Assembly: GCA_951812955.1 (NCBI GenBank)
Contig: OX638340.1
Span: forward strand, 2,816,001 to 2,880,000
Length of the DNA: 64,000 nucleotides
Source of the DNA: an uncultured Gemmatimonadota bacterium
Lineage (GTDB): Bacteria; JAAXHH01
Direction of reading: 5' to 3'
The translations under genes were made by a program, and so were the position numbers. The notes under the pieces were generated by a model. That model did not search any database, was not told where the DNA came from, and worked only from the letters and a program-made list of their open reading frames with translations. Positions 2,925 to 59,159 of this stretch are shown here, one piece after another; positions within the stretch are counted from its first letter, which is position 1; each line of letters begins with the position of its first letter.

Positions 2925-4172
2925 TTGAACTACACGGTATCCGAACCCAAACCCTGGAAACGCGTCCTGGAGATCGAAGTGCCCTCCGATGCGATTCAAT
3001 CCGAACTGAACGCCGCCTACGCGCGTTACAGTAGAGAGGTGCGCCTTCCCGGGTTCCGCCGGGGCAAGGTTCCACTCAGTGTGCTCAAGGCCCGTCTCGG
3101 CAATGAAATCCGGGCGGAAGTGCTCGAGAAGAAAATACCTGAATACCTGAACAGCGCCCACGAAAAGGCCGATATCAAGCCTATTAGCCAGCCCGTGATC
3201 GAAGAGATAGAATTCGACGAAGGACAGGACCTCAAACTCCGGGCCAGTGTGGAAGTCAAGCCCGCCATAGAATTGAAGCAATACAAGGACCTGCGGGTGA
3301 ACCGGCGGACCGTGAACGTGACCGACGAGGATATAGATCAGCGGCTGGAGGGGTTGCGGGAACGATACGCCAGCGTGGTGAACGTCGATGGTGCAGCGGA
3401 ACGGGACCACTTCATCCGGGCCGATATTCAGCATGCGGACAACAGCGGCGTGCCGATCATCGGGCGCAAGGAGGAGAACCAGTTTTTCCAGATCGGTTCC
3501 GGCCGCCTTGGAGAGGATTTCGACACCCAGTTGACCGGGGTCAGGGCCGACGAGGACCGTACCGTCCGGACCACGCTTCCGTCCGACTACCCCGACGAGA
3601 ACATGGCGGGCGGGGAAGCCTGTTTTATCGTGAGTGTCCGTGAGGTCATGGAAAGACAATTGCCGGACGCGGACGACGATTTCGCCGTGGACATCGGCAT
3701 GGAGAGCCTGGACGCCCTGAAACAGTCGATCAGGGAGGAAATCGAGCGGGAACCGGACCGGGAATTGCGCAACGACCTGGTCACGCAGATCGTGGAGGCC
3801 CACGATTTCGAGGTGCCCGAATCCATGATGACCGCCTATCTCGACCAGGTGGTGGCGGACGCGCGCCGTACCACGCGGGATCAGGACGAAGTCGACGAGA
3901 ACGCCCTTCGTCAGCAGTACCGGCCCGTGGCGAACAACCAGATCATGCGCCATCTCATCCTGGACGCCATCGGCGAGCAGGAAGGGCTGGCGGTGGATCA
4001 GGAGGAAGTGGATGAGCGGCTGGAGGCCGTCGCGGCGCGGGGCCAGGCCTCTGTCGACCAGGTTCGCAAACTCTTCCGTGAAAACGGGAGGCTGGAACGC
4101 ATCGAAGCGGATCTCAGGGAGGAGAAGGTCGTTGAGTTTCTCGTGCAGCACGCCGACATACAAGCGGAGTAG
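2925..4172 (+). CDS. tig: Trigger factor (ribosome-associated peptidyl-prolyl isomerase/chaperone)
   Basis: N-terminal ribosome-binding signature GFRRGKVP; overall tig-like architecture and the conserved position upstream of clpP-clpX. Likely TTG start at 2925 with GGAGG 7 nt upstream; the ORF track starts at ATG 2898. Confidence 0.8.
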   Translation: MNYTVSEPKPWKRVLEIEVPSDAIQSELNAAYARYSREVRLPGFRRGKVPLSVLKARLGNEIRAEVLEKKIPEYLNSAHEKADIKPISQPVIEEIEFDEGQDLKLRASVEVKPAIELKQYKDLRVNRRTVNVTDEDIDQRLEGLRERYASVVNVDGAAERDHFIRADIQHADNSGVPIIGRKEENQFFQIGSGRLGEDFDTQLTGVRADEDRTVRTTLPSDYPDENMAGGEACFIVSVREVMERQLPDADDDFAVDIGMESLDALKQSIREEIEREPDRELRNDLVTQIVEAHDFEVPESMMTAYLDQVVADARRTTRDQDEVDENALRQQYRPVANNQIMRHLILDAIGEQEGLAVDQEEVDERLEAVAARGQASVDQVRKLFRENGRLERIEADLREEKVVEFLVQHADIQAE

Positions 4173-4193
4173 GCCGACATACAAGCGGAGTAG
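4152..4193. repeat. Perfect 21-bp tandem duplication (gccgacatacaagcggagtag x2) spanning the tig stop codon
   Basis: Direct reading: unit at 4152-4172 contains the last 6 tig codons plus TAG; an identical copy lies at 4173-4193, immediately before the clpP RBS (AAGGAG). Confidence 0.9.
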
Positions 4194-4205
4194 AAGGAGC
4201 GTCTC

Positions 4206-4829
4206 ATGTTAGTACCGATGGTGATCGAACAGACGGGCCGCGGGGAACGGGCCTACGACATCTACTCTCTGCTGCTGAAGAACCGCATCGTCTTTATCGG
4301 TATGCCGATCGACGACACCATCGCGAACCTGGTGATCGCCCAGTTACTCTATTTGCAGTACGAAGACGCCGAGAAGGACATCAAACTGTACATCAACAGC
4401 CCCGGTGGCAGTATCACTGCGGGTCTGGCCATTTACGACACCATGCAGTTCATCCAGCCCGACGTGGAGACTTACTGCCTGGGCATGGCCGCCAGCATGG
4501 GCGCCTTTCTCCTCACGGCGGGCGGTGCCGGGAAACGGTACGCCCTGCCCTATGCGCGTATCCTGATCCACCAGCCTTCCATCCCCCACATGGCCGGAAC
4601 GGCGAAGGATATCGAGATCCAGGCCGAGGAAATGCTGCGCATGAAGCGGACCATGAATGAGATCATGGCCCATCACACCGGACAGTCCGTGGACAAGATT
4701 GAATCGGATACCGACAGGGACTTCTGGATGTCGCCGGAACAGGCCGTGGAGTACGGACTGGTGGACCACGTGGTCGAAACCGCCGCTTCAAAGGCCATCG
4801 CCGAATCGCTGAACGGCAAAACCGCCTAG
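4206..4829 (+). CDS. clpP: ATP-dependent Clp protease proteolytic subunit
   Basis: [30 protein letters not shown]... is the canonical ClpP N-terminus. Catalytic-Ser context [11 protein letters not shown] and His in ILIHQPS. AAGGAG RBS 6 nt upstream. Confidence 0.93.
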
Positions 4830-4838
4830 GACGGGATC

Positions 4839-6086: not shown

Positions 6087-6131
6087 CCTGACCCCTACCC
6101 CGCGGACCTTCCACTCGAACCGGCGGCGAAA

Positions 6132-8558
6132 ATGTCTCCCATGATTACCCTGAAGCGCAACGATCCCATTACATTCGACGACAAGCTGCCGCTCATTCCC
6201 CTCCGCGAGGTGGTCGTTTTTCCTTACATGGAATACCCCCTCATTATCGCGCGGGACGCTTCCATCAAGGCCCTTGAACACGGCGTCAACAACGACCGGT
6301 TGCTCTTCCTGACCGCCCAGCGCAATCCCGACATCGAAACCCCCGAAAAGGGCGATGTGCATCGAACGGGGATCGTGGCCCGTATTCTGCAGGTGGTGAA
6401 ACTTCCGAACAACTTGATCCGGGTTCTCGTCGAGGGGATCGTCCGCGCAAAGGTCGTCCGGTTTCTGTCATCGGATCCCTATATGCGAGTGAAAATCGCG
6501 CTGGTCGAGGAAACCGACGACAACCAGGCCGAGGTGCAGGCGAGACTGCGGACGGTCGTGGATCAGTTCTCGGAGTACATAAAGCTGAACCAGCAGGCGC
6601 CCGACGAGATACTGCTGTCACTTCAGAACATGGACGACGCCCAGCGCCTGGCGGACACTATGTCGGCCTTCATCCAGCAAAGCCCCCAGGTGAAGCAGCG
6701 GCTCATCGAGGCGCCGTCGATTATCGAGCAACTCGACGAGTTGGCGGCCATCCTGGCGACGGAACTGGAGATCCTGGAGATCAAGAACCATCTCGACGGC
6801 GAGGTCCGGGACCGAATCACCAAGTCTCAGCGGGAGTTCTTCCTCCAGGAACAGATGCGTGTGATCAAGCAGGAACTGGGTGAACTGGAGGAGTTGCCGG
6901 AAAACCTGGGCGGGCTGGCGCAGCAGGTAGCGGATGCGAAGATGCCCAAAGAAGCCCACGAAAAGGCCATGACTGAACTGGAAAAACTCCAACAGATGCA
7001 TCCGACCTCCCCCGAAGCGACGGTGATCCGCAACTACCTCGAATGGCTCGTCGAAGTGCCGTGGAGAAAACGTACGCGGGACCGCCGGGATATCGGCCGT
7101 GTGGAGTCCGTGCTCGACGCCGATCACTACGGGCTGGAAAAACCGAAGGAACATATCCTCGAGTACTTGTCGGTCATCCAGCTGACACGGCACCTGAAGG
7201 GACCGATCCTGTGCCTGGTCGGTCCCCCGGGCGTGGGCAAGACGTCCCTCGGTCGTTCGATCGCGCACGCCATGGGCCGGAAATTCGTCCGCATGTCCCT
7301 CGGCGGCGTGCACGACGAGGCCGAGATAAGGGGCCATCGCCGGACCTATATCGGTTCCATGCCTGGACGGATCATCCAGGCGATGCGCCGCGCAGGGACC
7401 GTCAATCCGGTGATCCTGCTCGACGAGGTGGACAAGCTGGGGCGGGACGTGCGCGGCGACCCCGCGTCGGCCCTGCTGGAAGTGCTGGATCCCGAACAGA
7501 ACAACGCCTTCAACGACCACTACCTCGAAGTGGATTACGATCTGTCCCGCGTGCTGTTTCTGACGACGGCCAATACGACGGACACCATCCCCCCCGCGCT
7601 GAACGACCGCATGGAGATCCTCGAGCTGCCCGGTTATCTCGAAACCCAGAAACTGGCCATCGCACAGGGATTCCTGGTGCCGAAACAGATCGAAGCCCAC
7701 GGACTGAAAAAAGAACGCGTCACGTTCAGGAAGGACGCCCTGCTGGGCATCATCCGGGAATATACCCGCGAAGCCGGCGTCCGGGGCCTGGAACGGCACA
7801 TCGCCGCGATCTGCCGCAAGCTGGCCCGCAAGGTGGTGGAAGGCAGTGCACGGAAACGGATGCAGGTTACGCGCAAACAGCTTTCAAACTACCTCGGCGT
7901 TCCGCGCTACCTGGACTCCGAAGTCATGAAACAGGATTCGGTGGGCCTTGCCACCGGGCTTGCATGGACGCAGTCGGGCGGGGACATTCTCTCCATCGAG
8001 GTCAGCGTCCTGAACCGCCGCGGTTCGGGACGGCTGACGCTGACCGGCCAACTGGGGGAAGTGATGCAGGAATCGGCCCACGCGGCGCTTACCTATGCCC
8101 GGTCCAGGGCCGCGTCACTGGGACTCGAGCCGGACTTCTACAAGAACGTCGAGATCCACGTGCACATGCCCGAAGGCGCGATCCCAAAGGACGGTCCGTC
8201 CGCCGGGATCACCATCGCGACGGCGCTCTGCTCGGCGCTGACCGGCGTGCCGGTTCGTTGCGATATTGCCATGACGGGCGAAATCACGCTACGGGGCAAC
8301 GTGTTACCCATCGGCGGCCTGAACGAGAAACTGATTGCCGCGCTCCGGGCCGGGATCAGGGAAGTGTTGATACCGCTCCGAAACCGGAAGGACCTGGTGG
8401 ATGTCCCGCCGGAGGTGAAGGGCGAGATCGAAATCTGTCCCGTATCGACCATGGACGAAGTTCTGAAACGAACCATGGGCATTCAGGTCGTGGAATCCCC
8501 CGTACCCGGGCTGATCCCCAGTCCGTCCGTCGCGCAGCCGGCCATTAAGCCAGTCTAG
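6132..8558 (+). CDS. lon: ATP-dependent Lon protease (LonA)
   Basis: Lon N-domain ([15 protein letters not shown]), AAA+ Walker [19 protein letters not shown]16 catalytic Ser in [15 protein letters not shown]. Conserved tig-clpP-clpX-lon order. Confidence 0.93.
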
Positions 8559-8640
8559 CCGTCCGGCCCTCGCAGGCCTAGCCGTCCGTCGCGCAGCCGG
8601 CCATTAAGCCAGTCTAGCCGTCCGGCTCTCGCAGGTCTCC
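8521..8640. repeat. Tandem duplication (period 59 bp, 2 copies, ~95% identity) covering the lon 3' end and the tsaE 3' end
   Basis: Copy A 8523-8581 and copy B 8582-8640 (ccgtccgtcgcgcagccggccattaagccagtctagccgtccggcYctcgcaggYct). The lon stop TAG sits in copy A (8556-8558). The stop and last 8 codons of the convergent tsaE are encoded on the opposite strand of copy B (8614-8640). Confidence 0.85.
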
Positions 8641-9150
8641 TCCTGGGTACCTCAGAGCTCGGGAAACATCTGCTTCCAGATCGGAAACCAGGTTTCCGGC
8701 GCCGGTGATCTCCAGCATTCTCCCCGTGCCTTCTCCGATTTCGATATGGACCGTGATCGCGCTGGAGGGCATGATCTCCGGGAATTTGTCTCCCCATTCA
8801 ATGAGGCAGACACGAGTGTCCACGTACTCGTCGAAACCGAGATCCAGCACCGAATCCGCGCTGTCCAGGCGGTAAAGGTCGAAGTGGGCCACCGGAACCC
8901 GGCCGTCGTATTCGTTCACGAGGGTGAAGGTGGGACTCGTTACAGGTTCGCCGATGCCGAGCCCAACGCAGATCCCCTGTATGAAACAGGTCTTCCCCGC
9001 GCCGAGATCGCCGGACACCCGCACCGTGTCACCCGGTTCCAGCCAATTGGCCAGGCGCCCTCCGATCCGTGCAGTCTGTCCCGGACCGTCCGACCTGAAA
9101 CTGCGCTGTTCCCGATGGACCGGCGTGTCCGAATGAATAGGATCGCTCAC
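8614..9150 (-). CDS. tsaE: tRNA threonylcarbamoyladenosine (t6A) biosynthesis ATPase TsaE (YjeE)
   Basis: P-loop GDLGAGKT and the TsaE signature TSPTFTLVNEY; ~170 aa; its start overlaps the serS stop (operon serS-tsaE on the minus strand). Confidence 0.75.
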   Translation of the reverse strand: MSDPIHSDTPVHREQRSFRSDGPGQTARIGGRLANWLEPGDTVRVSGDLGAGKTCFIQGICVGLGIGEPVTSPTFTLVNEYDGRVPVAHFDLYRLDSADSVLDLGFDEYVDTRVCLIEWGDKFPEIMPSSAITVHIEIGEGTGRMLEITGAGNLVSDLEADVSRALRYPGGDLREPDG

Positions 9151-10415: not shown

Positions 10416-10547
10416 ATTCCCTCCGTGACCGGTCGCGCCGGTCGAACGGGCCGCTTTCCTTGTAACCATGGGTTGTTTTAACGCTACAAATCACGGTAAA
10501 ATAGGAGGATGTCACCGTTCCCGGCAAGCAGAAACGTCGTAAGCCTG

Positions 10548-10640
10548 CCGAAGGGCACGGCATGCGCGGAAGGACCGTCCCGGTTCGCCGCCTACCGAAG
10601 GGCGCGGCATGCGCTGGAAGGACCGTCCCGGTTCGCCGCC
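10548..10640. repeat. Imperfect 45/46-bp tandem duplication in the serS upstream / DUF2400 downstream intergenic region
   Basis: ccgaagggcacggcatgcgcggaaggaccgtcccggttcgccgcc (10548-10592), spacer 'ta', then ccgaagggcgcggcatgcgctggaaggaccgtcccggttcgccgcc (10595-10640). Read directly from the sequence. Confidence 0.85.
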
Positions 10641-10703
10641 GAACGTCGGACTTGGCAGGAGATCTCTCGTCGGCACGTGCGGAACGCCGGCCCAGCCGGA
10701 AGG

Positions 10704-11513: not shown

Positions 11514-11686
11514 TGCGGAGCGTCCGTGTCTACTGGCCAGGTTACGATGCCTTGAGTCCGGTTAAGGGATGGCATAAGCGGCTTGACTTTAATATATTGT
11601 ATGTCGCGATTCCCGTAACCCGATTCGTGCCGTTGATGAGCCGTGCCGGACGAGTACGGCCGTGGACAGGCTGAGAGGCGTCCTAC

Positions 11687-12697
11687 ATGAACCCCGAGCA
11701 GCTGCTTCGGCAGATTGAGCAAGGCCGGATCGATGCGGTGTACTTCTTCACCGGCGACGAAGCGTACCGCAAGGAAGAAGCCGTGGACGCGCTGGTCGCC
11801 CGTGTCGTCGAACCGGGCACGGAAGCATTCTGCCTGGACGTGCTTCGCGGCGACGAGTGCGATGCCGCGGCCATATTGACCGCCGCGTCCCTCGTGCCCA
11901 TGATGGCCGAGCGCCGGGTCGTCGTCGTAAGGGACTTCCACAAGTTGCCTCAGAAGGATCGGGAAGCCGTCGCGGATTACGCGGAGCGGCCCGTGCCCAC
12001 CGCGGTCCTGGTGCTCGAGACGCCTCGGGTGAATCTGAAGACCAAACTTAACGCACGGCTGGCGTCGTCGTCGGTTTCTGTAGTGTTCTACCCCCTGTTC
12101 CCCGAAAAGGTTCCCCCCTGGCTTCAGCAGCACGCGAGACGCTACGGTAAGCGGATGACGCCCGAAGCAGCGCACCAGTTGCAGGCCATCGTGGGATCGG
12201 ACCTGGGGGAACTGGCCGGAGAGGTGGAGAAACTGGCCGTGTTCGTCGGCGGCCGGGATTCGATTGCGGCCGGAGACGTGGAAAGTTCGCTCGGACCCGT
12301 TCGCGCGGGTTCGGTTTTCGACATCGCCGAGGCCGTCGGCGAGAAGGACCTCGCCCGGGCGCTGGATGCCTACGAGCGCGCGATGGACGCAGGAGACGCG
12401 CCCCAGGCCATCGTGGCGCTCTTCGTCCGCCACCTGGTGATACTCTGGAAGATCCGGTTCCTGAAACGGGATCGCCGGACAGACGACGAAATCAAGAAGC
12501 AACTGCAGCTGGGATGGGGGTTCAACCGGTTTTACAACCGCTACTCCGCACAATCCAGGCTCCTCTCGGGACGGGATCTGCTGAGCGGGTTCGAGGCACT
12601 CTACGAAGCCGATACATCCCTTAAATCCAGCGCGTTGCCCCCCGAACTCGTCATGCGTCGGCTCTTGTATACTTTATGTACCGGCCAGGCGGCTTAG
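11687..12697 (+). CDS. holA: DNA polymerase III delta subunit
   Basis: N-terminus IDAVYFFTGDEAYRKEEAVDALVARV and later VVVVRDFHKL...REAVADYAERP...TAVLVLE match the HolA clamp-loader delta signature. ~336 aa, typical size. Confidence 0.75.
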   Translation: MNPEQLLRQIEQGRIDAVYFFTGDEAYRKEEAVDALVARVVEPGTEAFCLDVLRGDECDAAAILTAASLVPMMAERRVVVVRDFHKLPQKDREAVADYAERPVPTAVLVLETPRVNLKTKLNARLASSSVSVVFYPLFPEKVPPWLQQHARRYGKRMTPEAAHQLQAIVGSDLGELAGEVEKLAVFVGGRDSIAAGDVESSLGPVRAGSVFDIAEAVGEKDLARALDAYERAMDAGDAPQAIVALFVRHLVILWKIRFLKRDRRTDDEIKKQLQLGWGFNRFYNRYSAQSRLLSGRDLLSGFEALYEADTSLKSSALPPELVMRRLLYTLCTGQAA

Positions 12698-12856: not shown

Positions 12857-13846
12857 ATGAACACGACCGAAGGTATCGTAATCAGGGAACACCGGGGCGT
12901 ATTCGACGTGGAAACCCCACACGGGATCTACGCCTGCGCGTTGCGCAGCAGGATGAAGAAAGCGCTGATCTATCCGGAGCGGGACAACCAGCATCACTCC
13001 GTGGAGCAGGTCGGCCGTATCGGTACCGTGAATCCTGTCGCCATAGGGGATCGCGTGCGCTTCGTGGAGGACCAGGGGGAGACCGGCGCCATAGAGGAAG
13101 TGCTTCCGCGCCGCACCAAACTCTCCCGACTCGCCCCCGGCAAGCGGCGCATGGAACAGATCATGATCGCCAACGCCGACTATCTCGTCGTCGTCTTCTC
13201 GGTGAGGGACCCGAACCCGAATCTGCAGTTGCTGGACCGTCTGCTCGTGGCCGCGGAAGCCGGCAACCTGGCCCCGGTCGTCTGCCTGAACAAGATCGAT
13301 CTGGCGGAAGACGGGGATCCGGATCTCGCTGGTATCTACGAACGGTGCGGTTACCGCGTCATCCGGGCCAGCGCGGTGACGGGGAAAGGGGTCGACCTGC
13401 TGAAGGCAACGCTGCGGAACAGGATTTCCGCGATCGCGGGTCCGTCCGGTGCGGGGAAGACATCCCTGCTGAACGCCATGCAATCCGGCCTGGGACTTCG
13501 GGTTCGCGAGGTGAACCGGACGACGGGCCGGGGCCGGCACACCACCACTTACCTCGCCGCGCACAAGCTCGATGCAGGAGGCCTGGTGATTGACTCACCG
13601 GGGATCCGGGAATTCAGCCTGTGGGACGTCTCGCCACGCGAGCTTCCGGAGTTGTTCCCGGAAATGCGTGGCCATCTGTCGGGCTGCAGGTTCCACGACT
13701 GCACGCACGTCCACGAACCGGACTGTACCCTTCGGGACGCCCTCTCGGCGGGCGCCGTATCCCGGGAGCGGTACGAAAGCTACGTCGCATTGCGAAACGA
13801 ACTGGCTGGCGGGCGGAAGGCGGGCAGGGACGGCCTGCCGGGTTGA
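12857..13846 (+). CDS. rsgA: Ribosome small-subunit-dependent GTPase A (RsgA/YjeQ/EngC)
   Basis: Circularly permuted GTPase motifs (VCLNKIDL = NKxD before the P-loop AGPSGAGKTSLLNAM), N-terminal OB segment, and the C-terminal zinc knuckle C-x-H-x2-H-x5-C (CRFHDCTHVHEPDC). Confidence 0.88.
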   Translation: MNTTEGIVIREHRGVFDVETPHGIYACALRSRMKKALIYPERDNQHHSVEQVGRIGTVNPVAIGDRVRFVEDQGETGAIEEVLPRRTKLSRLAPGKRRMEQIMIANADYLVVVFSVRDPNPNLQLLDRLLVAAEAGNLAPVVCLNKIDLAEDGDPDLAGIYERCGYRVIRASAVTGKGVDLLKATLRNRISAIAGPSGAGKTSLLNAMQSGLGLRVREVNRTTGRGRHTTTYLAAHKLDAGGLVIDSPGIREFSLWDVSPRELPELFPEMRGHLSGCRFHDCTHVHEPDCTLRDALSAGAVSRERYESYVALRNELAGGRKAGRDGLPG

Positions 13847-13878
13847 CCAGGTGGCAGGGACGGCCTGCCGGGTTGACC
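13823..13878. repeat. Perfect 26-bp direct repeat (ggcagggacggcctgccgggttgacc) x2 with 4-bp spacer, spanning the rsgA stop codon
   Basis: Copy 1 13823-13848 contains the last rsgA codons and TGA (13844-13846); an identical copy lies at 13853-13878. Period 30 bp. Confidence 0.9.
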
Positions 13879-15920: not shown

Positions 15921-17242
<1,322 letters not shown>

Positions 17243-17934
17243 GTGACCCCGTTTTTACTTTCTGCAACCGCTACTTTTTTGAAAAAAATGAAATAAAATG
17301 TTGACTAAGAATCGGGCCGAATATATACTTATAACTCGCTAAACGGAGCATAGTTAAACACATCCGAACCATAGCCAGCGCAACACCTTATGCGGGGCCG
17401 TGTACAATGTCAAGGAAGATTTGGCGGCAGACGCGGGTGTGCAATGGGTATGATAGCGCGATGGATACGGACCGTGTTATGCAATTCGTTTCAGACCATG
17501 ACGAAGGATGAAGTTATTTTCGTGTTATTCGTCGTACGCAACCATTCCACGCAGATGGCAGAATTCGGCCAATGGTCTCGTATTGCTTAGAGTCCCATAG
17601 GGTTTCGGATTCAGCCAGGTGCGCGGTGGCGGAACGCTGGAAATCTGGCACGTTGTTTGCATTTGAAGGTTACTCGGATTCCTCGAACTCAAAATCGGTT
17701 TTTCGTTGCGTGTTCATGCCCTTGCACGCGACGGTTTGTATGTCGTTTCTTATGTAAAGGTATTTACGATTATCTATATTTATACGATTGCCCCACTACC
17801 ATCGCTGGAGGGAGGTGAGTGTCACGGAGTAAGGTTGTAGAATTCAAAGTCGAGAGAGCAATACTACGATACCGTCAGCAGGCCGGGGCAAGCTGACAAT
17901 AATCAGAAGGGCTCTGTTAATGAGGAGTGAATTG
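17243..17934. promoter_or_regulatory. ~690-bp AT-rich divergent intergenic island between thrC and the TonB-dependent receptor gene; contains a sigma-70-like TTGACT-N17-TATACT element near 17310-17345 oriented toward the receptor gene
   Basis: Sharp local drop in GC against the ~63% background. No convincing protein-coding ORF: the two listed ORFs (17390-17590, 17572-17757) are short and anonymous. Long enough to hold a 5' leader or riboswitch for the downstream receptor gene. Confidence 0.4.
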
Positions 17935-20900
17935 ATGTCTATAACAATTTCACGAGCTTTGCGCTTCGCATTCGCTTTCGCGTTAGTGCTCAGCATCTCG
18001 ACGGATGCACTGGCGCAGTTGTCGCTGGGTAAAGTTTCCGGTGTCGTGGTCGACAGTGAGACGCGGGAACCGCTGCCGGCAGCCAGTGTCCAAATCGAGG
18101 GCACGGTTTTGGGTGCGATGGCGAATGACATGGGCGAGTACTTTATTCTTAACGTACCGCCCGGCAACTACACCGTGGTGGTGAACGTCATCGGTTATGT
18201 CCCGGTGCGTGCCATAGGTACCGAGGTACACGCCGACTTGACCACGACGATGCACTTCGAGCTGGATTCGACGATTCTCGACTCCGCCGAAGCGGTCGAG
18301 GTCGTGGCGACACGGGATCTGGTCGAGAAGAGTCTCACTTCCACCCGGACCATCGTGGCGGCCGAGGAAATCCAGGCGCTGCCGGTGACCAGCATCGCCG
18401 AAGTGGTTCTGACCACGGCGGGCAGTTTCGGCGGCCGGCTCCGCGGCGGCGAAGCCAATCAATCGCAGACCACGCTGGACGGTTCAACAGTGACCGGGCA
18501 GCGAACTAATGAAAGTCAGGCGTTTGCGATCAACCCCTACATGATCCAGGAACTCGAGGTCAAGACGGGAACGTTCAACGCCGAGTACGTGAACGCGTTG
18601 GCCGGGATCACTTCGGTGGTTACCCGTGAAGGCGGTGCGAGTTACAACGGTAACTTCGAATACCGCACGTTGGGCCAGAAGGGTCTGAATTGGGCCAAGC
18701 CGCCCGAACTCGACATCGTGGACGCGTACCGCGCCGGAACCTGGTCGGAAGCCGACTTGCGCAAGGTCATTCAGGACGCGATCGACAAGACGAACGAGTT
18801 CAACAGTGATCCCGCACGCGCGGAGGACGGACTCAGGATGCAGGATCCCTTCGACGTGCTGGACATGACCGGAGCCCCGGATAGCTGGTCCGCCATCTAC
18901 AAGCGGGACAACTATTATTGGGATTACGACCGCGTCATTCCCGAACCCGAAGCCATCACGTGGTCCTACCTGACCGACGGATTGCCGGAAGCCCAGGCCA
19001 ATAGTTTCGCGGTGGACCGGTCTTTCCATCCTGATAAATACAACCAGTTCGCCCAGAACAACCGGACCGAGAAACGTCCGGTACAGATTGACTTCGGTAT
19101 GGGCGGTCCACTGGGCGACAAGCTGAACTGGTTCGCGTCGGGACGTTTCGCGGAGAGTTGGGGTCGCAATCCCGACGATTACATCCGTGTGATGAACTCC
19201 TTCATCAAGATGACCTACCGGCCTACCGTCAGCACCAAGGTGACCATGTCCGGACTCATCGAAGACACGGGTTTCTTCAGCAAGAAGGGCCAGCGGGGCT
19301 CAGCCAGCGTCGGCGGAACTTTCGACCCCGGTGCCTCGAACTATGGTTGGAAGTACAATAAAGAAGGTCTCAACCAGAATTTCGGCGGCCGAGTGCATGT
19401 GAATGCGTCGTTTACCCAGACGCTCAGTCCCCGTACCTTCTACGAGATCCGGTTTAGCCACCTGCGCGAGTACAACGAGCGCTATAATCCCAAGTACGGC
19501 AAGGAACCGCTGCCGTCCCTCACCGACGCGTTCATCCACTCCGTTGGATATTCGCCGCTCGAGCAGGGTAGCGGCACGCAGGTACCTTATATCCTGTACG
19601 GCGATGAGGCTTACTCCTCGATCGATTTCGGTAACTACACGAGTCGACGCCCGTTCAAGACCGACGTCAGCTTCGCCATTACAAGCCAGGTCACCTCGAA
19701 TCACCAGTTCAAGGGCGGCTTCGGTGTTGTGATGAATGATTATGAAGAGAACACGCGCGGTCCAGCCCGTGGAAACGCCGTGACGCTCTTCAACGATCTG
19801 AATCGGGATCCAACTGCCAGCGTACTGCCCCTCGCAGGACGCCAGGCTCACGTGTATCCGTTCGAATTATTCGCGTACATGCAGGATCGGATCGAGTACG
19901 GAAGCCTTGTGGTAAACGCGGGAGTGCGGCTGGACATGTTCGACGCCAACGCCAACGCGATCAATCCTTATCGTCCGCGTCCGGGCCCCGATCCCGAACA
20001 CGACGATCCGGAATACCGCACGCTTGCTCCGTCGATGAAGACGGGTCTCGCGCCGCGCCTGGGTATCTCCCATCCGATCACGGATCGCGCCGCGCTGCAT
20101 TATTCGTACGGTATCTTCAACCAGCGTCCCTCGCTGGAGAACCTGTTCACCGGTCTGGTTCAAACCTCCTCGTTTGAGCGCAACCACGGAAACCCGGATC
20201 TGCCGTTCCAGAAGTCCACGAACTACGAAATGGGTCTGCAGGCCGAGGTCTATCCCGGATACTATCTGGACGTTACCGGTTATTTCCGGGATGTTAACAA
20301 CCTGCCGCTGGTATGGCTCTTCGCGCCGGACGTAGCCTTCATCGGCGGTTCGCAGCGCGAAATCTCCATCCTGCTTCCGACTTTCGCACAGGATACGCGG
20401 GGACTCGAGGTGTCGTTACGGCGCCAGATGGCCAATCGGTTCTCATTGCGGGCCAATTACACCCTGGCCTTCACATCCAATCTGACCACGCCCCAAACGG
20501 TCCGTGAACGCGGCGGCGAGACGGTGCTCGTGTTCTCCGACTTCGTGGACGGAACACCGACGCCCGATACCTACATCCGCGAATTCACCCAGTTCGACCG
20601 ACGACATCGGATCGTAACGAACCTCCTGGTCGAGCTGCCCTACGGCATCAGCGCTTCTGTACTGACCAAGGCGCAGAGCGGCAACCAGTACCGCACGTCC
20701 AGCGAGCAGGCAATCGATCCGCTCGGTTTGCTTGCCGCATCGCAACGCTCGCCCTGGACGTGGACGAGCGACCTGTACGCCCAGAAGAATTTCGATCTGG
20801 GTAACGTACGCCTCGGCGTGTTCGCCCAGGTCAATAACATCTTTGACCGAGTGAACATCTACAGCATCACCGGTGGCTCTAACAACGCGAGCGGCGACCG

Positions 20901-33996: not shown

Positions 33997-34451
33997 GGAT
34001 CGCGGTTTGAGGACGGTCAGGGTTCTCGAAGCCTCGGGAGGGGATCGACGGTTGCTCAGTCCAGGTGGCCCGCACCGTGAGTTCGCCCGCTGGCTGGCCG
34101 TGTGCACGTATGTGGAAACCAGGCGCCGAGCACCGTAATGGTACCTCCGACTGCCCGGGACGTCAAGCACTTACGGCGGCGTTGCCTCGTCGGGGAGACC
34201 CTTCGTAGCCGCACGGGCCGATTTCAGTATTGCACGCGAATGACCGAAAAAGGTTCGTTGTTACGGTGCAGGTCATTATCTTGTCGAGGTGCTGCGCGGT
34301 CGGCCGACGCGACGGTACGTGGCAGGTAGACGTGCCGGTACGTGGTTGGTAGATGCGCCAGTACGTGGCCGTAGCAGCCCGTCACCGTGTAGGTCCGTGG
34401 CCGTGCCCCGTCCACCGGGATGGTCAGTATATTCTACGAGCAGGTGTGCTG

Positions 34452-42366: not shown

Positions 42367-43584
42367 CTACGCGGTGCGTGAAAAACGTTCCAGCGCCGCG
42401 TCGTCGATCCGGACGCCCAGACCGGGATCGTCGGTTACTGGAAACGCGCCGTCGACAGGTTGCGGGGCTTCCAGGGCGTAGCGGCATCTCGTGGGATAGG
42501 ACTCGTGGCCGTGTTCCATGATCAGGAAGTTGGGGATGGCCGCGGACAGCTGGATGGTCGCGGCTATGGACAGCAGGCCACCTCCTCCAATGTGGGGTGA
42601 CACGGGGATGTTGTAAGTCTCCGCGAGCACGGCGATGCGTTTCCCCTCGGTCAGCCCCGTACGGCCGATATCCGGCATCACCACGTCGCAGGTCCTTCTT
42701 TCGAAGGCTTCCCTCATCTCGAAACGGGTGCGGTACCACTCTCCGTTTGCGACGTGCATGTCCAGCGCCCGGGTAACGGCCGCGTGGCCTGCCAGATCTT
42801 CGGGCAGGATAGGCGCCTCCAGCCAGTATACGTCCAATGCTTCCAGTTCCCGGCCCAGCCTGATGGCCCCGGCCACGTCGAATTCGGTGTGGACGTCCAC
42901 CATGACGGCGATGTCCTGACCGACGCGATCGCGGACGGCCGCGGCGATGGCGACTGTTCCTTTATGGTCACTCGCCGGGGAGAGTTTCAGTCCACGGTAA
43001 CCTGCGGCCACGAGACTCTCGGCCCGGTCCGCCGCGCTCTTGGGGTCGCGTCCGGCGCATCCCGAATAAAGCTCGATCCGATCGCGAAACCGACTCCCGA
43101 GCAGTTTATGCACCGGCATGTCCAGCGCCTTGCCCTTCAGGTCCCACAGGGCGATGTCGCAAGCGGCCAGGGCATCGACATAAAAACCGGTCGGATGTCC
43201 CCTTTCCCGCATTCCGTCGAAGAGGCGTTGCCACAGGAACTCCACGTCGAAGGGGTCCGCACCGATCAGTGCGGGGCGGCACAGGTCTTCCACGATGGTC
43301 CGCGTGGTACCTGGCAATATCGGACTTTGCCCTTCGCCGTAGCCGACGAGGCCTTCGTCGGTCGTTACGCGCACCACCAGGGTCTCGTGCATATCCGACT
43401 TGAAAGCGTGTCTGGCCTCCGGTATGAAATAAGGGGAGGACGCGCCGGGCTCAGCGGAATTGTCGCCGTGCGCACCGGGATCGGCGGAGTTGCCGCCGCG
43501 CGTATCCGTATCGCGGCCGTGCATATTCGGGTCCCCTTCTTTCGAGATACGTATAGCGAAAGCTTCGACGTTCGAGATTCTCAT
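42367..43584 (-). CDS. Mandelate racemase/muconate-lactonising-enzyme family dehydratase (enolase superfamily)
   Basis: N-terminal capping domain (MRISNVEAFAIRI...VVRVTTDEGLVGYGEG). Barrel with metal ligands and the KxK/DxE pattern (AVMVDVHTEF, YWLEAPILPED, DVVMPDIGRTGL). Contains a repeat-generated low-complexity insertion (GGNSADPGAHGDNSAEPGASS). Confidence 0.7.
   Translation of the reverse strand: MRISNVEAFAIRISKEGDPNMHGRDTDTRGGNSADPGAHGDNSAEPGASSPYFIPEARHAFKSDMHETLVVRVTTDEGLVGYGEGQSPILPGTTRTIVEDLCRPALIGADPFDVEFLWQRLFDGMRERGHPTGFYVDALAACDIALWDLKGKALDMPVHKLLGSRFRDRIELYSGCAGRDPKSAADRAESLVAAGYRGLKLSPASDHKGTVAIAAAVRDRVGQDIAVMVDVHTEFDVAGAIRLGRELEALDVYWLEAPILPEDLAGHAAVTRALDMHVANGEWYRTRFEMREAFERRTCDVVMPDIGRTGLTEGKRIAVLAETYNIPVSPHIGGGGLLSIAATIQLSAAIPNFLIMEHGHESYPTRCRYALEAPQPVDGAFPVTDDPGLGVRIDDAALERFSRTA
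43447..43520. repeat. ~2.5 degenerate copies of a ~30-bp unit inside the MR/MLE gene (encodes NSADPGAHGD / NSAEPGASS)
   Basis: gggctcagcggaattgtcgccgtgcgcacc / gggatcggcggagttgccgccgcgcgtatcc / gtatcgcggccgtgcat read on the + strand. Confidence 0.6.
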
Positions 43585-43588: not shown

Positions 43589-44827
43589 TCAATCCTCGGG
43601 CCGTTCACCGGCGGGCGCCATCTTCACCAGCCTGGGTTCGAAGCGGGCCACCACTTCCACCAGGTCGGTCTGCGCCGCCATCACCTCTTCGATATTCTTG
43701 TACACAAAAGGGACTTCGTCGAGACCGGCGGACATGAGCGTGACGCCTCTCTCCCGGAGGATCCGGTTGGCGTCCTGCCAGTTCAGGCTCCTGATCGCCC
43801 GTTTCCGGCTCATCACGCGGCCGGCGCCGTGGGCGGCCGAATTCATGGCGTCCCGGCTCCCCTTCCCACGGACCACGAAGGCGGGACTCGCCATCGAACC
43901 GGGTATGATGCCCAGCACGCCCCGGCCGGCCGGCGTAGCGCCCTTCCGGTGTACCACTGCTTTCCGGTCCGGACGCTGGCCGGGGACGGTGATTCTTTCC
44001 TTCCACGCGAAGTTATGGTGGTTTTCCAGGTCAAGCAACACTTCCGCGCCGAGATAACCGGCCATGTGGCGGTGTATGCAGGCGTGGTTGGCCGCCGCGT
44101 AGTGTCCCATGAGCTCCATGGCCGCCCAGTACTCCTGGCCCGGTTCGGTGTCCAGGTCCAGCCAGGCGAGATGGCGCTGCTCTTTGGACAGCCCGGGACG
44201 CAGGGACATGGCCAGCCTGCTGTAATGGGAGGCGACCATGGCGCCGGTCCCCCGGCTGCCGCTGTGAGAAAGCAGGGCGAGGTAGGCGCCGGTATCCAGC
44301 CCGTTCAACGGTTCGTTCAGGGTCAGTTCACCGAATTCGACGAAATGGTTGCCGCTCCCACTGGTGCCCAGTTGGCTCCAGGCCTTGTCCCTGGCCTTGC
44401 GCGTCACGGGAGATACGGACCAGTTCCGGTCAAGGACCGGGTGACTTCGGCGTTTCTTGAAACTGGATCCGACGCCGAAGCGTGTCTCCGCGGAGATGGC
44501 CTTTCTGAGCCGGTCCGTTCCCCGGTCCTGGCGCAGCGTGTCCAGGGGCATGTCCAGGACGGTCAGTTTCATCCGGCAGGCGATGTCGACGCCCACGGCG
44601 TAGGGAATGACCGCGTTGTCTGTGGCCAGCACGCCGCCGATGGGCAGGCCGTAACCCACGTGGGCGTCCGGCATCAGCGCGCCGGCCAGGGCCACGGGCA
44701 GGGAACAGGCCCGTTCCATCTGCTGGACCGACTGCGCGTCCAGGTCCCGCCCCCACTGCCGATAGGGTATTTTTTTTGGCACTTGCCGCGTTCCTGGATA
44801 AGGGTCCGCAGTCCATACCGCGCGCAT
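43589..44827 (-). CDS. rtcB: RNA-splicing ligase RtcB (3'-phosphate/5'-hydroxyl nucleic acid ligase)
   Basis: All RtcB landmarks are present: MPDAHVGYGLPIGGV, GSGNHFVEFG, SHSGSRGTG, ENHHNFAW, HRKGATPA, AHGAGR. No rtcA or rtcR nearby. Confidence 0.85.
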   Translation of the reverse strand: MRAVWTADPYPGTRQVPKKIPYRQWGRDLDAQSVQQMERACSLPVALAGALMPDAHVGYGLPIGGVLATDNAVIPYAVGVDIACRMKLTVLDMPLDTLRQDRGTDRLRKAISAETRFGVGSSFKKRRSHPVLDRNWSVSPVTRKARDKAWSQLGTSGSGNHFVEFGELTLNEPLNGLDTGAYLALLSHSGSRGTGAMVASHYSRLAMSLRPGLSKEQRHLAWLDLDTEPGQEYWAAMELMGHYAAANHACIHRHMAGYLGAEVLLDLENHHNFAWKERITVPGQRPDRKAVVHRKGATPAGRGVLGIIPGSMASPAFVVRGKGSRDAMNSAAHGAGRVMSRKRAIRSLNWQDANRILRERGVTLMSAGLDEVPFVYKNIEEVMAAQTDLVEVVARFEPRLVKMAPAGERPED

Positions 44828-44838
44828 TGCGCGGCGGA

Positions 44839-45729: not shown

Positions 45730-45771
45730 GGTGGAGACGAACTCCGGTACGGTCAGGTGACTGGAAGGGAC

Positions 45772-45863
45772 GCTCCGCACAGCGCAATTTCCCGCGACCG
45801 TGCAGCGCGATTTTCTGCTCCGCACAGCGTAGTGTCCCGCTCCGCTCAGCGCAGTTTCCCGCG
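45772..45863. repeat. 3-4 degenerate ~23-bp direct repeats (gctccgcacagcgYaRtKtcccgcg) spanning the stop of the DSD1-like gene and the TauD upstream region
   Basis: Copies at 45772-45796, 45818-45840 and 45841-45863 plus a decayed copy between; the DSD1-like stop (45846-45848, minus strand) lies in the last copy. Confidence 0.7.
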
Positions 45864-50161: not shown

Positions 50162-51547
50162 ATGTTCAGACTCGAATTCGACCGCGGGACCATCCTGGTG
50201 CATGGCGACAGAGCCACGGTGGCCGAGTTGAAGCTTCCGGGCTGCGCCTTTGACCGGCGGGTGTCGCTTTACCGAGCTCCGGCACGGCATTACCGCGAGA
50301 TCATAACGCGGCTGGCCGACCGGGGATTGACTTACCGGGACGACGCCCGGTCCTACGGCAAACTGGACCTGTCCTTTCAGTCGGACCGGTCTCCCTTCCC
50401 CTATCAACAGGAAGCGGTAGACGCCTGGTGGCAGGCGGGCGGCCGCGGCGTGGTCGTGCTGCCGACCGGGGCGGGAAAGACCTTCGTCGCACTGATGGCG
50501 ATGGCGCGGGTCCAGCGCGGCACGCTGGTAGTCGTGCCTACCATCGACCTGATGCAACAGTGGTACGGCGTGATCTCCAGCCAGTTCGATATCGAAGTGG
50601 GACTGATCGGCGGTGGCTACTACGACGTCGAGCCGGTCACCGTGTCCACCTACGATTCCGCGTACCTGCATATGGAACGGTTCGGCCACCGGTTCGGCCT
50701 GGTGATCTTCGACGAATGCCACCACCTGCCGGGACCCTCCTATCTGATGACGGCCGACCTGTCGCTGGCGCCTTACCGGCTCGGGCTGACGGCCACGCTC
50801 GAACGGGAGGACGGCGCGGAACACCAGTTGAAGGACGCGATCGGAGAGACCGTCTACCGCCAGGAGATCCGCGCGCTAAGCGGGGAATACCTGTCCGGCT
50901 ACGAAACGATAAAAGTCAGTGTGCGCCTTTCCCCGGAAGAACGCGAGGAATACCAGGAGGAAAGGAATACCTACCGCGCGTTCCTGGACAGCCACCGGAT
51001 CTCGTTGTCCGGGCCAAATGGATGGGTCCGTTTTCTGGCGGCGACGTCCCGCAGCGAAGAAGGCCGCCGGGCATTCACGGCCTACCGTACCCAGAAGGCC
51101 ATCGCCCAGGGTTCACAGGCAAAGCTGCGCGTGCTGGAAAGATTGATCCGGCAGCACCGCCGCGACCGCATGCTCATCTTCACCAGCGACAACGAAACGG
51201 TCTACCGCATATCGCGCCGGTTTCTCATTCCAGCCATCACGCACCAGACCAAGGTGAAGGAGCGCCAGGAATTGCTGGCGGCGTTTAACGCCGGTGAATA
51301 CCCCTTCCTGGTCACCTCCCGCGTACTGAACGAAGGGGTCGATGTCCCCGAGGCCAACGTGGCCGTGGTGCTGTCCGGTTCCGGTAGCGTAAGGGAACAT
51401 GTACAGCGTCTCGGCCGCATTCTCCGGCGTGTCGAGGGGAAGCACGCGATCCTGTACGAACTCGTGGCGGAGCAGACGGGCGAGGAATACGCGAGCTCGC
51501 GGCGAAGGCAGCACAGCGCCTACCGGAAAGCCCCGGAAGGGAGGTAA
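50162..51547 (+). CDS. XPB-like SF2 DNA helicase (ERCC3/RAD25 family)
   Basis: N-terminal damage-recognition-like domain (LEFDRGTILVHGD..), helicase motif I VLPTGAGKT, motif II IFDECHH, motif VI SGSGSVREHVQRLGRILR. Confidence 0.75.
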   Translation: MFRLEFDRGTILVHGDRATVAELKLPGCAFDRRVSLYRAPARHYREIITRLADRGLTYRDDARSYGKLDLSFQSDRSPFPYQQEAVDAWWQAGGRGVVVLPTGAGKTFVALMAMARVQRGTLVVVPTIDLMQQWYGVISSQFDIEVGLIGGGYYDVEPVTVSTYDSAYLHMERFGHRFGLVIFDECHHLPGPSYLMTADLSLAPYRLGLTATLEREDGAEHQLKDAIGETVYRQEIRALSGEYLSGYETIKVSVRLSPEEREEYQEERNTYRAFLDSHRISLSGPNGWVRFLAATSRSEEGRRAFTAYRTQKAIAQGSQAKLRVLERLIRQHRRDRMLIFTSDNETVYRISRRFLIPAITHQTKVKERQELLAAFNAGEYPFLVTSRVLNEGVDVPEANVAVVLSGSGSVREHVQRLGRILRRVEGKHAILYELVAEQTGEEYASSRRRQHSAYRKAPEGR

Positions 51548-51550
51548 GGC

Positions 51551-52801
51551 ATGCTGACGGGTGACCTCCTCCGCGTCCGTTTTCGTAAGGGCCGGATCCA
51601 TCTTCCCTATATCGATGATCAGGATCCCGATCACCTCGGGATCGCCGAAACGCTGATCCGGATTTTCGAAAACCACGAGGGCGGAACCCGCCAGGAACTG
51701 GATGAAGAGCTGGCGGATACGACCGGCAGCGGGACGGAATTCCTGTTTCATCGCGGACTGGCCAAGTTGCTGCGGGACCGCTGTACGTTCGAGTCGGCGT
51801 CACCCGTCGACCCTGCGGATCTTCGAAGGCGGATCTTCGCGGCCGCTGCCGCGGCATACAGCACGGATCAGGTCCGCATCGACCGGGAGGCCATTCTGGC
51901 CGCGGCGGGTGCGCCGGACGCCCTGGATGTCACGCAGGTGGAAGGAACTTTCTACGCCGATCTGAAGGAAGCCGAACGGCTCAAGTCATTCAAGCCCTGT
52001 ACGCCCGGATGGCTCTTGAGCAGGTACAACGTCGCCCTGGCCCAGGCCGCCCTGCTGCGGGCATCCGGAATGGATATGCTCGTGGAAGGAGAAAGTCCGG
52101 CCCGTTATCGTGAACTCTTCCGCAAGATGAAGTTCTTCCGCCTGCTCCACGAAATCCGGCAGACCGGTCCGGGGAAATACCACGTTCACGTTGACGGTCC
52201 CATGTCGCTCTTCAAGTCATCCCAACGCTACGGACTGCAGATCGCCCAGTTTCTCCCTTCCGTGCTGCACTGCCAAACCTGGCAAATCACGGCTTCTATT
52301 GTCTGGGGCGCCGCGCGCCGTGAAGGTGTATTGAAATTGACGCCTGAAACGGGGTTGAAACCGGTAGGCCCTTCTACGGGACAGTGGATACCCGAAGAGG
52401 TGGCCTGGCTCGAAGACCGGTTTAACCGGCTTAAAACGGATTGGCGCATTTCGGCCGGGACGGACGTCATCGACCTGGGCGGCCAGGGTGTACTGGCTCC
52501 CGAGTATATCCTCACCCATCTACCCACCGGGATGAGCGTATACCTGGAATTCCTCGGATACTGGCGCTCCGAAGGTGTGAGGACGCGCCTGGAACTGCTG
52601 GGCAGATACGGCCCTCCGAACATGATCCTGGCGATTTCCGCGGAACTGGGCGTGGATGAAGAAGCATCGACGGATATTCCCGGCGAGGTCTATGCGTACC
52701 GACGGACACCCGTCGCCCGCGACATCCTGAAAATCCTGGAAAACATGGTTAAAACCCATCCAGGCGCATCGGCGGGAACCCTGGATTTGTTCGACCCCTA
52801 G
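51551..52801 (+). CDS. DUF790-family protein (Bax1-like nuclease partner of XPB)
   Basis: ~415 aa immediately 3' of the XPB-like gene (4-bp gap). N-terminus MLTGDLLRVRFRKGRIHLPYI... matches the DUF790 start seen next to bacterial XPB genes. Assignment by synteny and remembered consensus. Confidence 0.5.
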   Translation: MLTGDLLRVRFRKGRIHLPYIDDQDPDHLGIAETLIRIFENHEGGTRQELDEELADTTGSGTEFLFHRGLAKLLRDRCTFESASPVDPADLRRRIFAAAAAAYSTDQVRIDREAILAAAGAPDALDVTQVEGTFYADLKEAERLKSFKPCTPGWLLSRYNVALAQAALLRASGMDMLVEGESPARYRELFRKMKFFRLLHEIRQTGPGKYHVHVDGPMSLFKSSQRYGLQIAQFLPSVLHCQTWQITASIVWGAARREGVLKLTPETGLKPVGPSTGQWIPEEVAWLEDRFNRLKTDWRISAGTDVIDLGGQGVLAPEYILTHLPTGMSVYLEFLGYWRSEGVRTRLELLGRYGPPNMILAISAELGVDEEASTDIPGEVYAYRRTPVARDILKILENMVKTHPGASAGTLDLFDP

Positions 52802-52816
52802 GCGGGCATAAATGGG

Positions 52817-55576: not shown

Positions 55577-55618
55577 CGGATTGGCAGTCTGTATTGCGGC
55601 CGGAAGGGAAAGTGACAG

Positions 55619-56479: not shown

Positions 56480-56520
56480 AGACTGGTGTAATTTTTTATA
56501 GCGGTTATTCGAACTGACAT

Positions 56521-56538
56521 ATTGTACAATTGTACAAT
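56521..56538. promoter_or_regulatory. Perfect 18-bp palindrome ATTGTACAATTGTACAAT upstream of the ALDH7-like gene (candidate GntR/FadR-type operator)
   Basis: Two abutting copies of the self-complementary TTGTACAA in the AT-rich leader ~80 bp before ATG 56615. The core fits the GntR-family t.GT-N-AC.a half-site logic. Confidence 0.3.
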
Positions 56539-56614
56539 AGGCAAGCACGAGCAGGTAAGCTGGTTCTGTTAGACTATTCACCATTTCAGGGTACATAATA
56601 TCGGAGAACCCAAG

Positions 56615-58153: not shown

Positions 58154-58223
58154 CCGGAAAAAACCTTACAGCGTTTCACGAGTCAACAAGAGGAACGGAA
58201 ACCGACCATAGGGGGGACAACCT

Positions 58224-59093
58224 ATGTCATCCAACGGGGCGTTTATCATAGACAAGAACCTGGGCGCGCGCCTGGACGAGACCCAGGCGGATCTGCCGAA
58301 GGCCAATTCCGATGGCGAAGCGGTCGTCCCGCCGACGGATGAACAGAAATACCTGTTCGACAAGGACGGCTGGCTCCTGTTGCCCGGGGTGCTGTCCGAG
58401 GCCGAATGCGTGGAGATGCGGGCGTTCTGCCTGCAGTTGCACCATGATCCGGAGTCCATCCCCGAACCCGAGCGTTCTGTCCTCGGCGGACCATTACAGC
58501 GCCTGACGGACCACCCATTGGTGGTGGGTTTCATGAACGAATTTCTGGCCTACCCCGGCCTGTCCAGCCAGATTTGCTACGGTTTCCGTCAGGAATCTGC
58601 CAGTTTATTCTACCGGGAATCCGGTGACGGCGCCTTCGGCCCTCATAACGGCAACGGCATGCTGCGTTTCCCGGGCGACTCCCATCTCTACCGCTGTATT
58701 CCTGGCAAGGCCAACTCCGCGCTGACAAGGGTGGTCTGGGAACTGAACCCGGTCACGGAGGGGAACGGAACGCTGCTGGTATCCGGAAGCCACAAGGCCG
58801 TCTTCCCCGCGCCGCCGTCCATACAATCGCCGGACTCGCCGATCTGGAACACCTATACCTGTCCGCCAGGATCGTTGATATTCTTCACCGAGGCCCTCAC
58901 CCACAGCGGCAGGCCCTGGATCGACGAGGAGCATCCGCGGATCGCCGTCTTCAGTTGCTACAACTCTGTCAACAGCAAGTGGCACAACTGGGACCCGCAC
59001 CCCGAGCTTCTTGCTTCCATGCCGCCCCTCAGACAGACCCTCTACCGTCCGGTTCACGTGGCTGGCAACCTGGTGGGTGGCGAGGTACACTGA
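58224..59093 (+). CDS. PhyH-like Fe(II)/2OG dioxygenase family protein
   Basis: N-terminal YLFDKDGWLLLPGVLSEAE and distal-His segment VVWELNPVTEGNGTLLVSGSHKA resemble the PhyH/ectoine-hydroxylase fold; the HxD motif is not canonical. Confidence 0.45.
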   Translation: MSSNGAFIIDKNLGARLDETQADLPKANSDGEAVVPPTDEQKYLFDKDGWLLLPGVLSEAECVEMRAFCLQLHHDPESIPEPERSVLGGPLQRLTDHPLVVGFMNEFLAYPGLSSQICYGFRQESASLFYRESGDGAFGPHNGNGMLRFPGDSHLYRCIPGKANSALTRVVWELNPVTEGNGTLLVSGSHKAVFPAPPSIQSPDSPIWNTYTCPPGSLIFFTEALTHSGRPWIDEEHPRIAVFSCYNSVNSKWHNWDPHPELLASMPPLRQTLYRPVHVAGNLVGGEVH

Positions 59094-59123
59094 GCGTGGT
59101 TTCGATCAGGGTGCCGGGGAACT

Positions 59124-59159
59124 GGGATTGCCGATCAAACAGGGATTGCCGATCGAACA
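59124..59159. repeat. 18-bp tandem duplication (gggattgccgatcRaaca x2) 30 bp downstream of the PhyH-like stop
   Basis: Copies 59124-59141 and 59142-59159, one mismatch. Confidence 0.8.

Follow-up and report, generated by a model that had tools for sequence, protein, structure and literature searches.

The 64-kb stretch studied here, positions 2,816,001 to 2,880,000 of contig OX638340.1 (GenBank assembly GCA_951812955.1) from an uncultured Gemmatimonadota bacterium, carries short head-to-tail duplications at gene ends, between genes and within genes. This stretch of 64,000 nucleotides is called the window below, and its positions are counted from its first letter. The duplications are real, derived with respect to outgroups, recurrent and variable in copy number, and they reflect a rate of formation or retention that is elevated in one shallow group within the Gemmatimonadota. 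We define this group as the window and those relatives whose trigger factor (tig) is about 90% or more identical to that of the window. The best explanation is probably that the duplications are ordinary local events of the variable-number tandem repeat (VNTR) type, formed or retained at a high rate in the group and filtered by purifying selection. Their association with stop codons, which the initial annotation had emphasized, is mostly a by-product of that selection, supplemented by two cases of stop-codon loss.

Recovery, origin and density of the duplications

Duplications were sought in the window using Tandem Repeats Finder (TRF), and each site was read directly. The gene map was based on codon-usage scoring and corrected using Pfam matches and start-codon checks; it comprises 43 genes and is 93% coding. 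The existence of the eight two-copy duplications listed in the initial annotation was borne out, every site being recovered by TRF or by direct reading. The duplication at 13823-13878 was missed by TRF and found by direct reading. Two arrays lie beyond that list, one at 34306-34369 and a weak one at 41508-41536. Using a period of at least 15 and a score of at least 50 as criteria, nine arrays were seen, as compared to 0.46 per 64 kb expected from 100 simulated 64-kb sequences (third-order Markov, window composition). Head-to-tail copies are therefore present well above chance. The copies abut or are separated by just 4 nt, in agreement with the earlier statement that they do not resemble clustered regularly interspaced short palindromic repeats (CRISPR), in which spacers separate the copies.

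Homologues of trigger factor, the product of tig, assign the window to the Gemmatimonadota. The origin of the duplications was evaluated by comparing syntenic loci from relatives at graded tig distances. Loci L081, L083-L085 and L093 are about 97-98% identical to the window, and L082, on one 3.9-Mb contig, has 91% tig identity. More distant are an 87% group (L094 and L090, on the same 3.7-Mb contig), an 84% group (L086 and L091, on the same 1.8-Mb contig) and L087 (67%); the latter half of the window is represented by L088, L089 and L092. The sample thus consists of ~64 kb plus ~250 kb of partly orthologous relatives, rather than whole genomes.

The duplication at the end of tig is the clearest case. 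At 4152-4193 (+ strand), TRF and direct reading both identified two 100% identical copies (×2.0) of a 21-bp unit made up of the last 6 codons of tig and its TAG stop. The duplication supplies a second in-frame stop codon, and the spacer between tig and clpP has grown from 12 nt to 33 nt as a result. It corresponds to an insertion of exactly 21 nt with respect to outgroups L086, L087 and L094, in which the spacer is 11-12 nt, and its boundaries have 0 nt of microhomology. The same duplication is common to six other assemblies (L081, L082, L083-L085 and L093), where the copies differ by 1-2 nt in a pattern specific to each lineage.

These observations bear directly on the possibility, raised in the initial annotation, of an assembly artefact; k-mer overlaps left untrimmed, for example, or variants from different strains might have been placed in tandem. 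Periods of 21 and 59 do match common assembler k-mer sizes, and L093 (MKWU01000628.1) contains a suspicious 69-bp repeat (×2.1, 82%) inside tig, at 1874-2015, that is absent from the window. However, the tig, lon and 48-bp duplications recur in independent assemblies, including the 3.9-Mb contig of L082, and the assemblies that share the tig duplication come from different assemblers and projects. The divergence between copies differs among lineages in line with phylogeny, and the coding duplications are all in frame. An artefactual origin is thus barely credible. For L093, which shares 97% identity with the window, the record of tig gives a truncated 307-aa protein (P0036); the 69-bp repeat in this gene could be either an artefact of metagenome assembly or strain merging or a real in-frame duplication.

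The end of lon shows that such events recur. In the window, a 59-bp unit (×1.9, 98%) containing the last 33 nt of lon, the TAG stop and 23 nt downstream occupies 8523-8635 on the + strand according to TRF, the whole feature extending over 8523..8640. L086, L087 and L094 have just one copy of the lon 3' end, and the 59-bp duplication is present in the subclade of the window. L081 carries 2.3 copies together with a separate 23-bp duplication, and L082 has an independent, perfect 16-bp duplication over the same stop. Thus, three different duplications occurred at this gene end in three lineages. Two other interpretations of the site were discarded. The 23 nt after the lon stop had been considered the degraded remnant of a second copy of the final 36 nt of lon, with a boundary exactly at the stop; the outgroups and L082 show that these nucleotides are the ancestral downstream sequence. 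A deliberate 'refactoring' duplication that separates overlapping genes in the style of a synthetic genome was rejected for lon and tsaE, as the duplications have diverged and are found in many environmental assemblies.

The third gene end is that of a DSD1-like gene on the - strand, where an array of 22 bp ×4.1 (71%, units of ~22-24 bp) at 45771-45862 starts in the last 5 codons, takes in the TGA stop (45846-45848) and occupies the spacer that precedes TauD. The unit that was duplicated comprises the five terminal codons, TGA and the next 6 nt. There are ~4 copies in the window, two in L088 and none in L089. In L088, a 23-bp ×4.2 array (97%) lies over the TauD stop, at 12058-12153.

Comparison of the orthologous loci, which the initial annotation had proposed as a check, established the direction of change: the tig, lon and DSD1-like units, and a unit in the signal peptide of an FG-GAP gene described below, all derive from sequence of which outgroups have one copy at the corresponding site. 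Copy number also varies among close relatives. The lon array ranges from 1.9 to 2.3 copies plus sub-duplications, the DSD1-like array has ~2 versus ~4 copies and a 48-bp intergenic array has 2.1-3.4, although copy number may be miscounted for arrays longer than 141 bp in the k141 short-read assemblies (L083-L085).

We used 80 loci from other phyla as controls. These ~60%-identical loci were all that a scan with the highly conserved ClpX returned, have the same GC content and total 1.3 Mb; an exact look-up of the ClpP sequence of the window gave no record. They contain arrays of period at least 15 at 7 per 100 kb, of which 77% are inside genes, as uniform placement predicts, and no excess of arrays at stop codons was detected among them. 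Arrays associated with non-coding DNA occur at about 10 per 100 kb in the window as compared to 1.6 in the controls. Per non-coding base, the difference is about 13-fold, such that non-coding duplications are about 6-13 times denser than in the controls. The sister lineages L086/L091 and L090/L094, of equal GC content, have 0-2 arrays per 21 kb versus 3-7 in the window's group, and orthologous intergenic spacers are 1.5-3 times longer in the group than in these sisters.

Probable selective filtering and the association with stop codons

The initial annotation placed five of the eight duplications over or directly after a stop codon. Those at tig, lon and the DSD1-like gene truly span the stop. 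The one near the PhyH-like gene is purely intergenic, and at rsgA and tsaE the loss of a stop extended the reading frame into repeats, without duplication of the gene end itself. In rsgA (+ strand, 13817..13878), direct reading revealed two perfect 26-nt copies, 30 nt apart (13823-13848 and 13853-13878). The gene ends in ...GGR-TAG in L082, L083, L086 and L094, while this TAG has become AAG at 13817-13819 in the window and in L081. In the window, the rsgA open reading frame (ORF) therefore continues for 9 codons into ancestrally intergenic, repeat-bearing DNA (13817-13846). The tsaE extension (- strand, 8614..8661) was identified by comparing protein C-termini and reading the DNA. The ancestral TGA, kept in L083, is CGA at 8659-8661 in the window, and the extended ORF gains 14-15 residues and ends at a CTAG within the second copy of the lon repeat. 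In both genes, then, the stop lies inside a repeat because the ancestral stop was lost in this genome. The C-terminus of tsaE is different in every relative examined.

The frame and the position of the arrays bear the signature of purifying selection, with no need for the underlying duplication process to favor particular sites. Among the intragenic arrays of the window and its relatives, the period is divisible by 3 in 12 of 12 (15, 15, 18, 18, 21, 24, 24, 27, 30, 33, 36 and 54), an outcome with a chance probability of (1/3)^12, or about 2e-6. All of these lie in tolerant segments, such as a signal peptide or a surface loop. Non-coding arrays have arbitrary periods, including 16, 17, 20, 22, 23 and 59. 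Relative to uniform placement, arrays in coding sequence are depleted (10 observed, 24.7 expected), while intergenic arrays (9 versus 2.2) and those overlapping stop codons (9 versus 1.4) are enriched. The stop-codon share of the non-coding arrays, 0.45, is close to the expected 0.35, and a model in which arrays are placed neutrally with respect to the protein predicts that 35-44% span a stop.

Among the explanations offered in the initial annotation, that of micro-duplications tolerated near stop codons is thus the best supported, by the in-frame periods, the tolerant locations, the arbitrary non-coding periods and a stop share, 6 of 17, near that predicted for a selective filter. The clustering at stop codons and in intergenic DNA arises mainly because duplication there leaves proteins unchanged. 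Specifically, when a duplication spans the stop codon, the protein is protected from it, and stop-spanning duplications therefore accumulate without being targeted.

One result weighs against this interpretation. When neutrality was modelled by units rather than arrays, only 13-16% of events were expected to span a stop, as compared to 6 of the 17 non-coding events (35%) that do so (P = 0.04 and 0.015). This test is post hoc, treats all intergenic DNA as neutral and counts two of its six events at one site; it is also biased in that stop-spanning duplications stay detectable longer, one copy being under coding constraint. What it provides is a weak signal of a possible 2-fold preference for gene ends.

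Such a preference would be expected if the association were mutational rather than selective, through a group-specific process directed at gene 3' ends, such as breaks or template switches where transcription or translation terminates or where convergent machineries collide. Besides the unit-based stop share, the independent duplication of the lon end at least three times is consistent with this proposal, as are the clean cases that lack microhomology and the fact that the rsgA stop region was affected in the window and separately in L094. In the latter, an otherwise repeat-poor lineage, a perfect 17-bp ×2 duplication covers the stop at 20844-20878. Nevertheless, the stop occupies no fixed place in the unit, its relative positions being 0, 0.1, 0.29, 0.41, 0.54 and 0.57. 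Equally young duplications are found in divergent promoter regions, at gene 5' ends and in internal protein loops, and the in-frame periods of all coding events show that selective filtering is strong. The array-based expectation (0.35-0.44) fits the observed share, and recurrence at one site is expected once a repeat exists there. Overall, we consider targeting of gene ends unlikely. An apparent tendency of units to end at the stop disappeared after correct phasing and the addition of cases (mean relative position 0.32, n = 6, not significant).

The lineage-specific process suggested in the initial annotation is accordingly upheld with respect to rate, the group lying far above its sisters and the controls. 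Its proposed targeting of termination zones is not, given the variable position of the stop within units and an excess over the filter of at most about 2-fold (post hoc P of 0.015-0.04).

In the favored explanation, selection on ordinary local duplications, the pattern would develop as follows. Each duplication would be made from single-copy sequence already present at its site, and this would happen repeatedly within the group. Duplications of 15-59 bp would arise or persist at an unusually high rate, some of them later expanding, contracting or decaying. Those that damage proteins would be removed by purifying selection. The survivors are of four kinds: wholly intergenic duplications; stop-spanning ones, in which the first copy ends the protein normally and the second is merely extra spacer; in-frame ones in tolerant segments; and ones that are read into later, after loss of a stop.

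Molecular origin, possible function and known systems

The boundaries of the duplications provide some indication of how they form. In this small sample, the microhomology arms are 0 nt at tig, the lon end of L082 and a duplication in L090, and 1 nt at the rsgA stop of L094. Arms of 4 nt occur at 59120 and in the TauD array of L088, and those at 30845 were possibly 6 nt and later mutated. As to the cause of the high rate, the arms of 0-1 nt appear to point away from microhomology-mediated slippage and towards the filling-in and joining of staggered breaks or template switching. Conceivably, the group gained a microhomology-independent duplication process, such as the filling-in and joining of staggered breaks, that prefers gene 3' ends or convergent termination zones, lengthening spacers and feeding C-terminal extensions such as those of rsgA and tsaE. 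In this full form, we judge the proposal to be improbable.

Blunt boundaries with 0-1 nt of microhomology might also be footprints of mobile elements or integrases, that is, target-site duplications left after excision or duplicated attachment sites at gene 3' ends. Some integrating elements do target gene 3' ends. The units, however, vary in length between 15 and 59 bp without a favored size, and their boundaries have no common motif. No foreign sequence lies between the copies, nor does an insert occur there in any relative examined, and no transposase or integrase gene adjoins any of the sites on the gene map of the window. Moreover, such an origin would account neither for arrays of 3-4 copies nor for coding events that keep the frame, and we regard it as very improbable.

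A different possibility is that the units are functional and kept by selection, as terminators, RNA elements, protein-binding sites, back-up stop codons or spacers for translational coupling. The tig-clpP duplication is retained, with few changes, in every sampled member of the group and adds a second in-frame stop. Further, short hairpins are present in two of the units, those at 13823 and 45771 (folding z-scores, about -2.2). The hairpin at 13823 is of 6 bp (GGCAGG..CCTGCC), and the earlier claim that the units are not palindromic fails strictly for this unit. Nevertheless, there are no U-tracts, and z-scores over the units extend from +0.6 to -2.2, unlike intrinsic terminator hairpins. A scan of the window predicted 17 terminators, as compared to 15.4 in shuffled sequence, and none at the repeats. 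There is thus no evidence that the units act as terminators. An Rfam search of the window yielded no match at the repeats and only one tRNA-Leu, and the loci have no sequence in common. Copy number and sequence are free to vary among close relatives, the outgroups function without the duplications and the flanking coding DNA is as conserved as the second tig copy, such that conservation says little. A selected function for the units is distinctly unlikely.

The duplications are akin to bacterial VNTR or minisatellite loci, as used in multiple-locus VNTR analysis (MLVA) typing. These also have head-to-tail units of 15-60 bp whose copy number varies between close relatives and are also intergenic or in frame in tolerant protein regions. 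The arrays described here differ in being mostly two-copy and young, in that several overlap stop codons and in their density, non-coding arrays being unusually frequent for a genome this compact, at about 10 per 100 kb versus 1.6 in controls.

A second comparison is with mycobacterial interspersed repetitive units (MIRUs). As attributed to Supply et al. 1997, these are reportedly tandem units of 40-100 bp between operon genes that overlap the upstream stop and vary in copy number, and they are said to form one dispersed family of related sequence at about 40 loci. The arrays of the window likewise include tandem units between genes, overlap of the upstream stop and variable copy number. Unlike MIRUs or repetitive extragenic palindromic (REP) elements, each unit here copies local, unique sequence. 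Indeed, a direct-repeat search of the window found no repeat family common to the duplication sites, the only dispersed repeats being those that encode FG-GAP protein repeats.

Two mechanisms known from other organisms yield comparable products. Tandem duplications in plants are said to form by fill-in and joining of staggered single-strand breaks, as ascribed to Schiml et al. 2016. This route, like the formation of target-site duplications, produces blunt duplications of tens of bp without microhomology. The resemblance is one of mechanism only; no nicking enzyme, end-joining genes or mobile element was identified here. In microhomology-mediated tandem duplication (MTD), two copies arise from single-copy DNA and may expand or revert (bioRxiv 10.64898/2026.02.28.708716; 2020 S. 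pombe predecessor 10.1101/2020.03.03.972455). The 2026 preprint considers MTD the dominant route to tandem repeats, bacteria included (bioRxiv 10.64898/2026.02.28.708716). The duplications of the window resemble its products in being two-copy, in deriving from single-copy DNA and in being able to expand. They differ in that the cleanest cases (tig, the L082 lon end, L090 and L094) have arms of 0-1 nt, with 4-6 nt in only some arrays. A literature search returned general work on MTD and no description of stop-codon-specific duplications in bacteria.

Other arrays, the surrounding region and significance

Three of the remaining arrays are intergenic. That at 10543-10640, between the DUF2400 stop and the serS start, has a unit of 47/48 bp (×2.1, 94%) and is followed by an older, decayed copy. 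It is absent from L082 and L086 and has 2.4-3.4 copies in L081, L083-L085 and L093. The array at 34306-34369 (23 bp ×2.8, 80%) occupies a divergent intergenic region upstream of a SpoU methylase gene. The third, at 59120-59164 (18 bp ×2.4, 88%), lies in a convergent intergenic region and starts 27 nt after the PhyH-like stop; this region is absent from the short spacer of L089.

Three further arrays are within genes and in frame. On the + strand, a 24-bp unit (×1.9, 95%) at 30845-30890 falls in the n-region of the lipoprotein signal peptide of an FG-GAP/ASPIC (CRTAC1-like) gene. It doubles eight residues (ASPCSRFR/ASPCSRFA) and is single-copy in L090 and L091, corresponding to a 24-nt insertion in the window. 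The 15-bp array (×1.9, + strand) at 41508-41536, in an SBP_bac_5 gene, is weak, with a marginal score of 51. On the - strand, a 30-bp unit (×2.1, 81%) at 43441-43502 lies in a variable N-terminal loop of an MR/MLE enolase-superfamily gene. The initial annotation had recognized a peptide insertion at this site and, indeed, the in-frame repeat adds a ten-residue repeat to the loop (GGNSADPGAH/GDNSAEPGAS). This loop is 35 residues shorter in L089 and contains a different, 21-bp duplication in L088. Protein length also varies among close relatives in GrpE (252-287 aa) and PrmA (295-306 aa), because tandem repeats of 54, 33 and 15 bp lie in frame close to the N-termini (L081 5464-5621 and 3593-3666; L082 5583-5617).

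Several other features of the region were noted. An RtcB RNA-ligase gene (43589-44827) is located between TauD and MR/MLE in the window, L090 and L091; this interval holds no gene in L089 and a 424-aa gene with no recorded Pfam match in L088. At 50162-52801, a gene for an XPB-type helicase (XPB_DRD, ResIII and Helicase_C domains) precedes a DUF790 gene, and the pair is kept in L088 and L089. We take it to resemble the XPB-Bax1 helicase-nuclease pair, a DNA-repair module. The longest intergenic region, 17243-17919 (677 bp), is of lower GC content (0.55; 16001-18000). Downstream of it are very large genes (1030 and 1099 aa) and then a PorV-family gene, which suggests that this cluster is associated with type IX secretion. 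Between tsaE and serS, L087 has PglZ response-regulator and histidine-kinase genes (16403-19351), L094 has only a 109-aa PglZ fragment (16094-16423) and the window has nothing. Finally, the 284-bp spacer that precedes tig contains a tRNA-Leu gene (anticodon TAG) at 2665-2746.

The duplications are of an ordinary, local and VNTR-like type; their group-specific density and the clean cases free of microhomology make them modestly interesting. They illustrate how, in bacteria with a compact genome, selection determines which sites can keep small structural mutations. For annotation, a duplicated gene end is no evidence of a special element and, for strain typing, the loci behave like VNTR markers. 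Upon loss of a stop codon, the repeats also become a source of new peptide tails at the C-terminus. Last, the several-fold difference in density between sister lineages of equal GC content, together with the microhomology-free cases, is a hint that replication or repair changed in this group.

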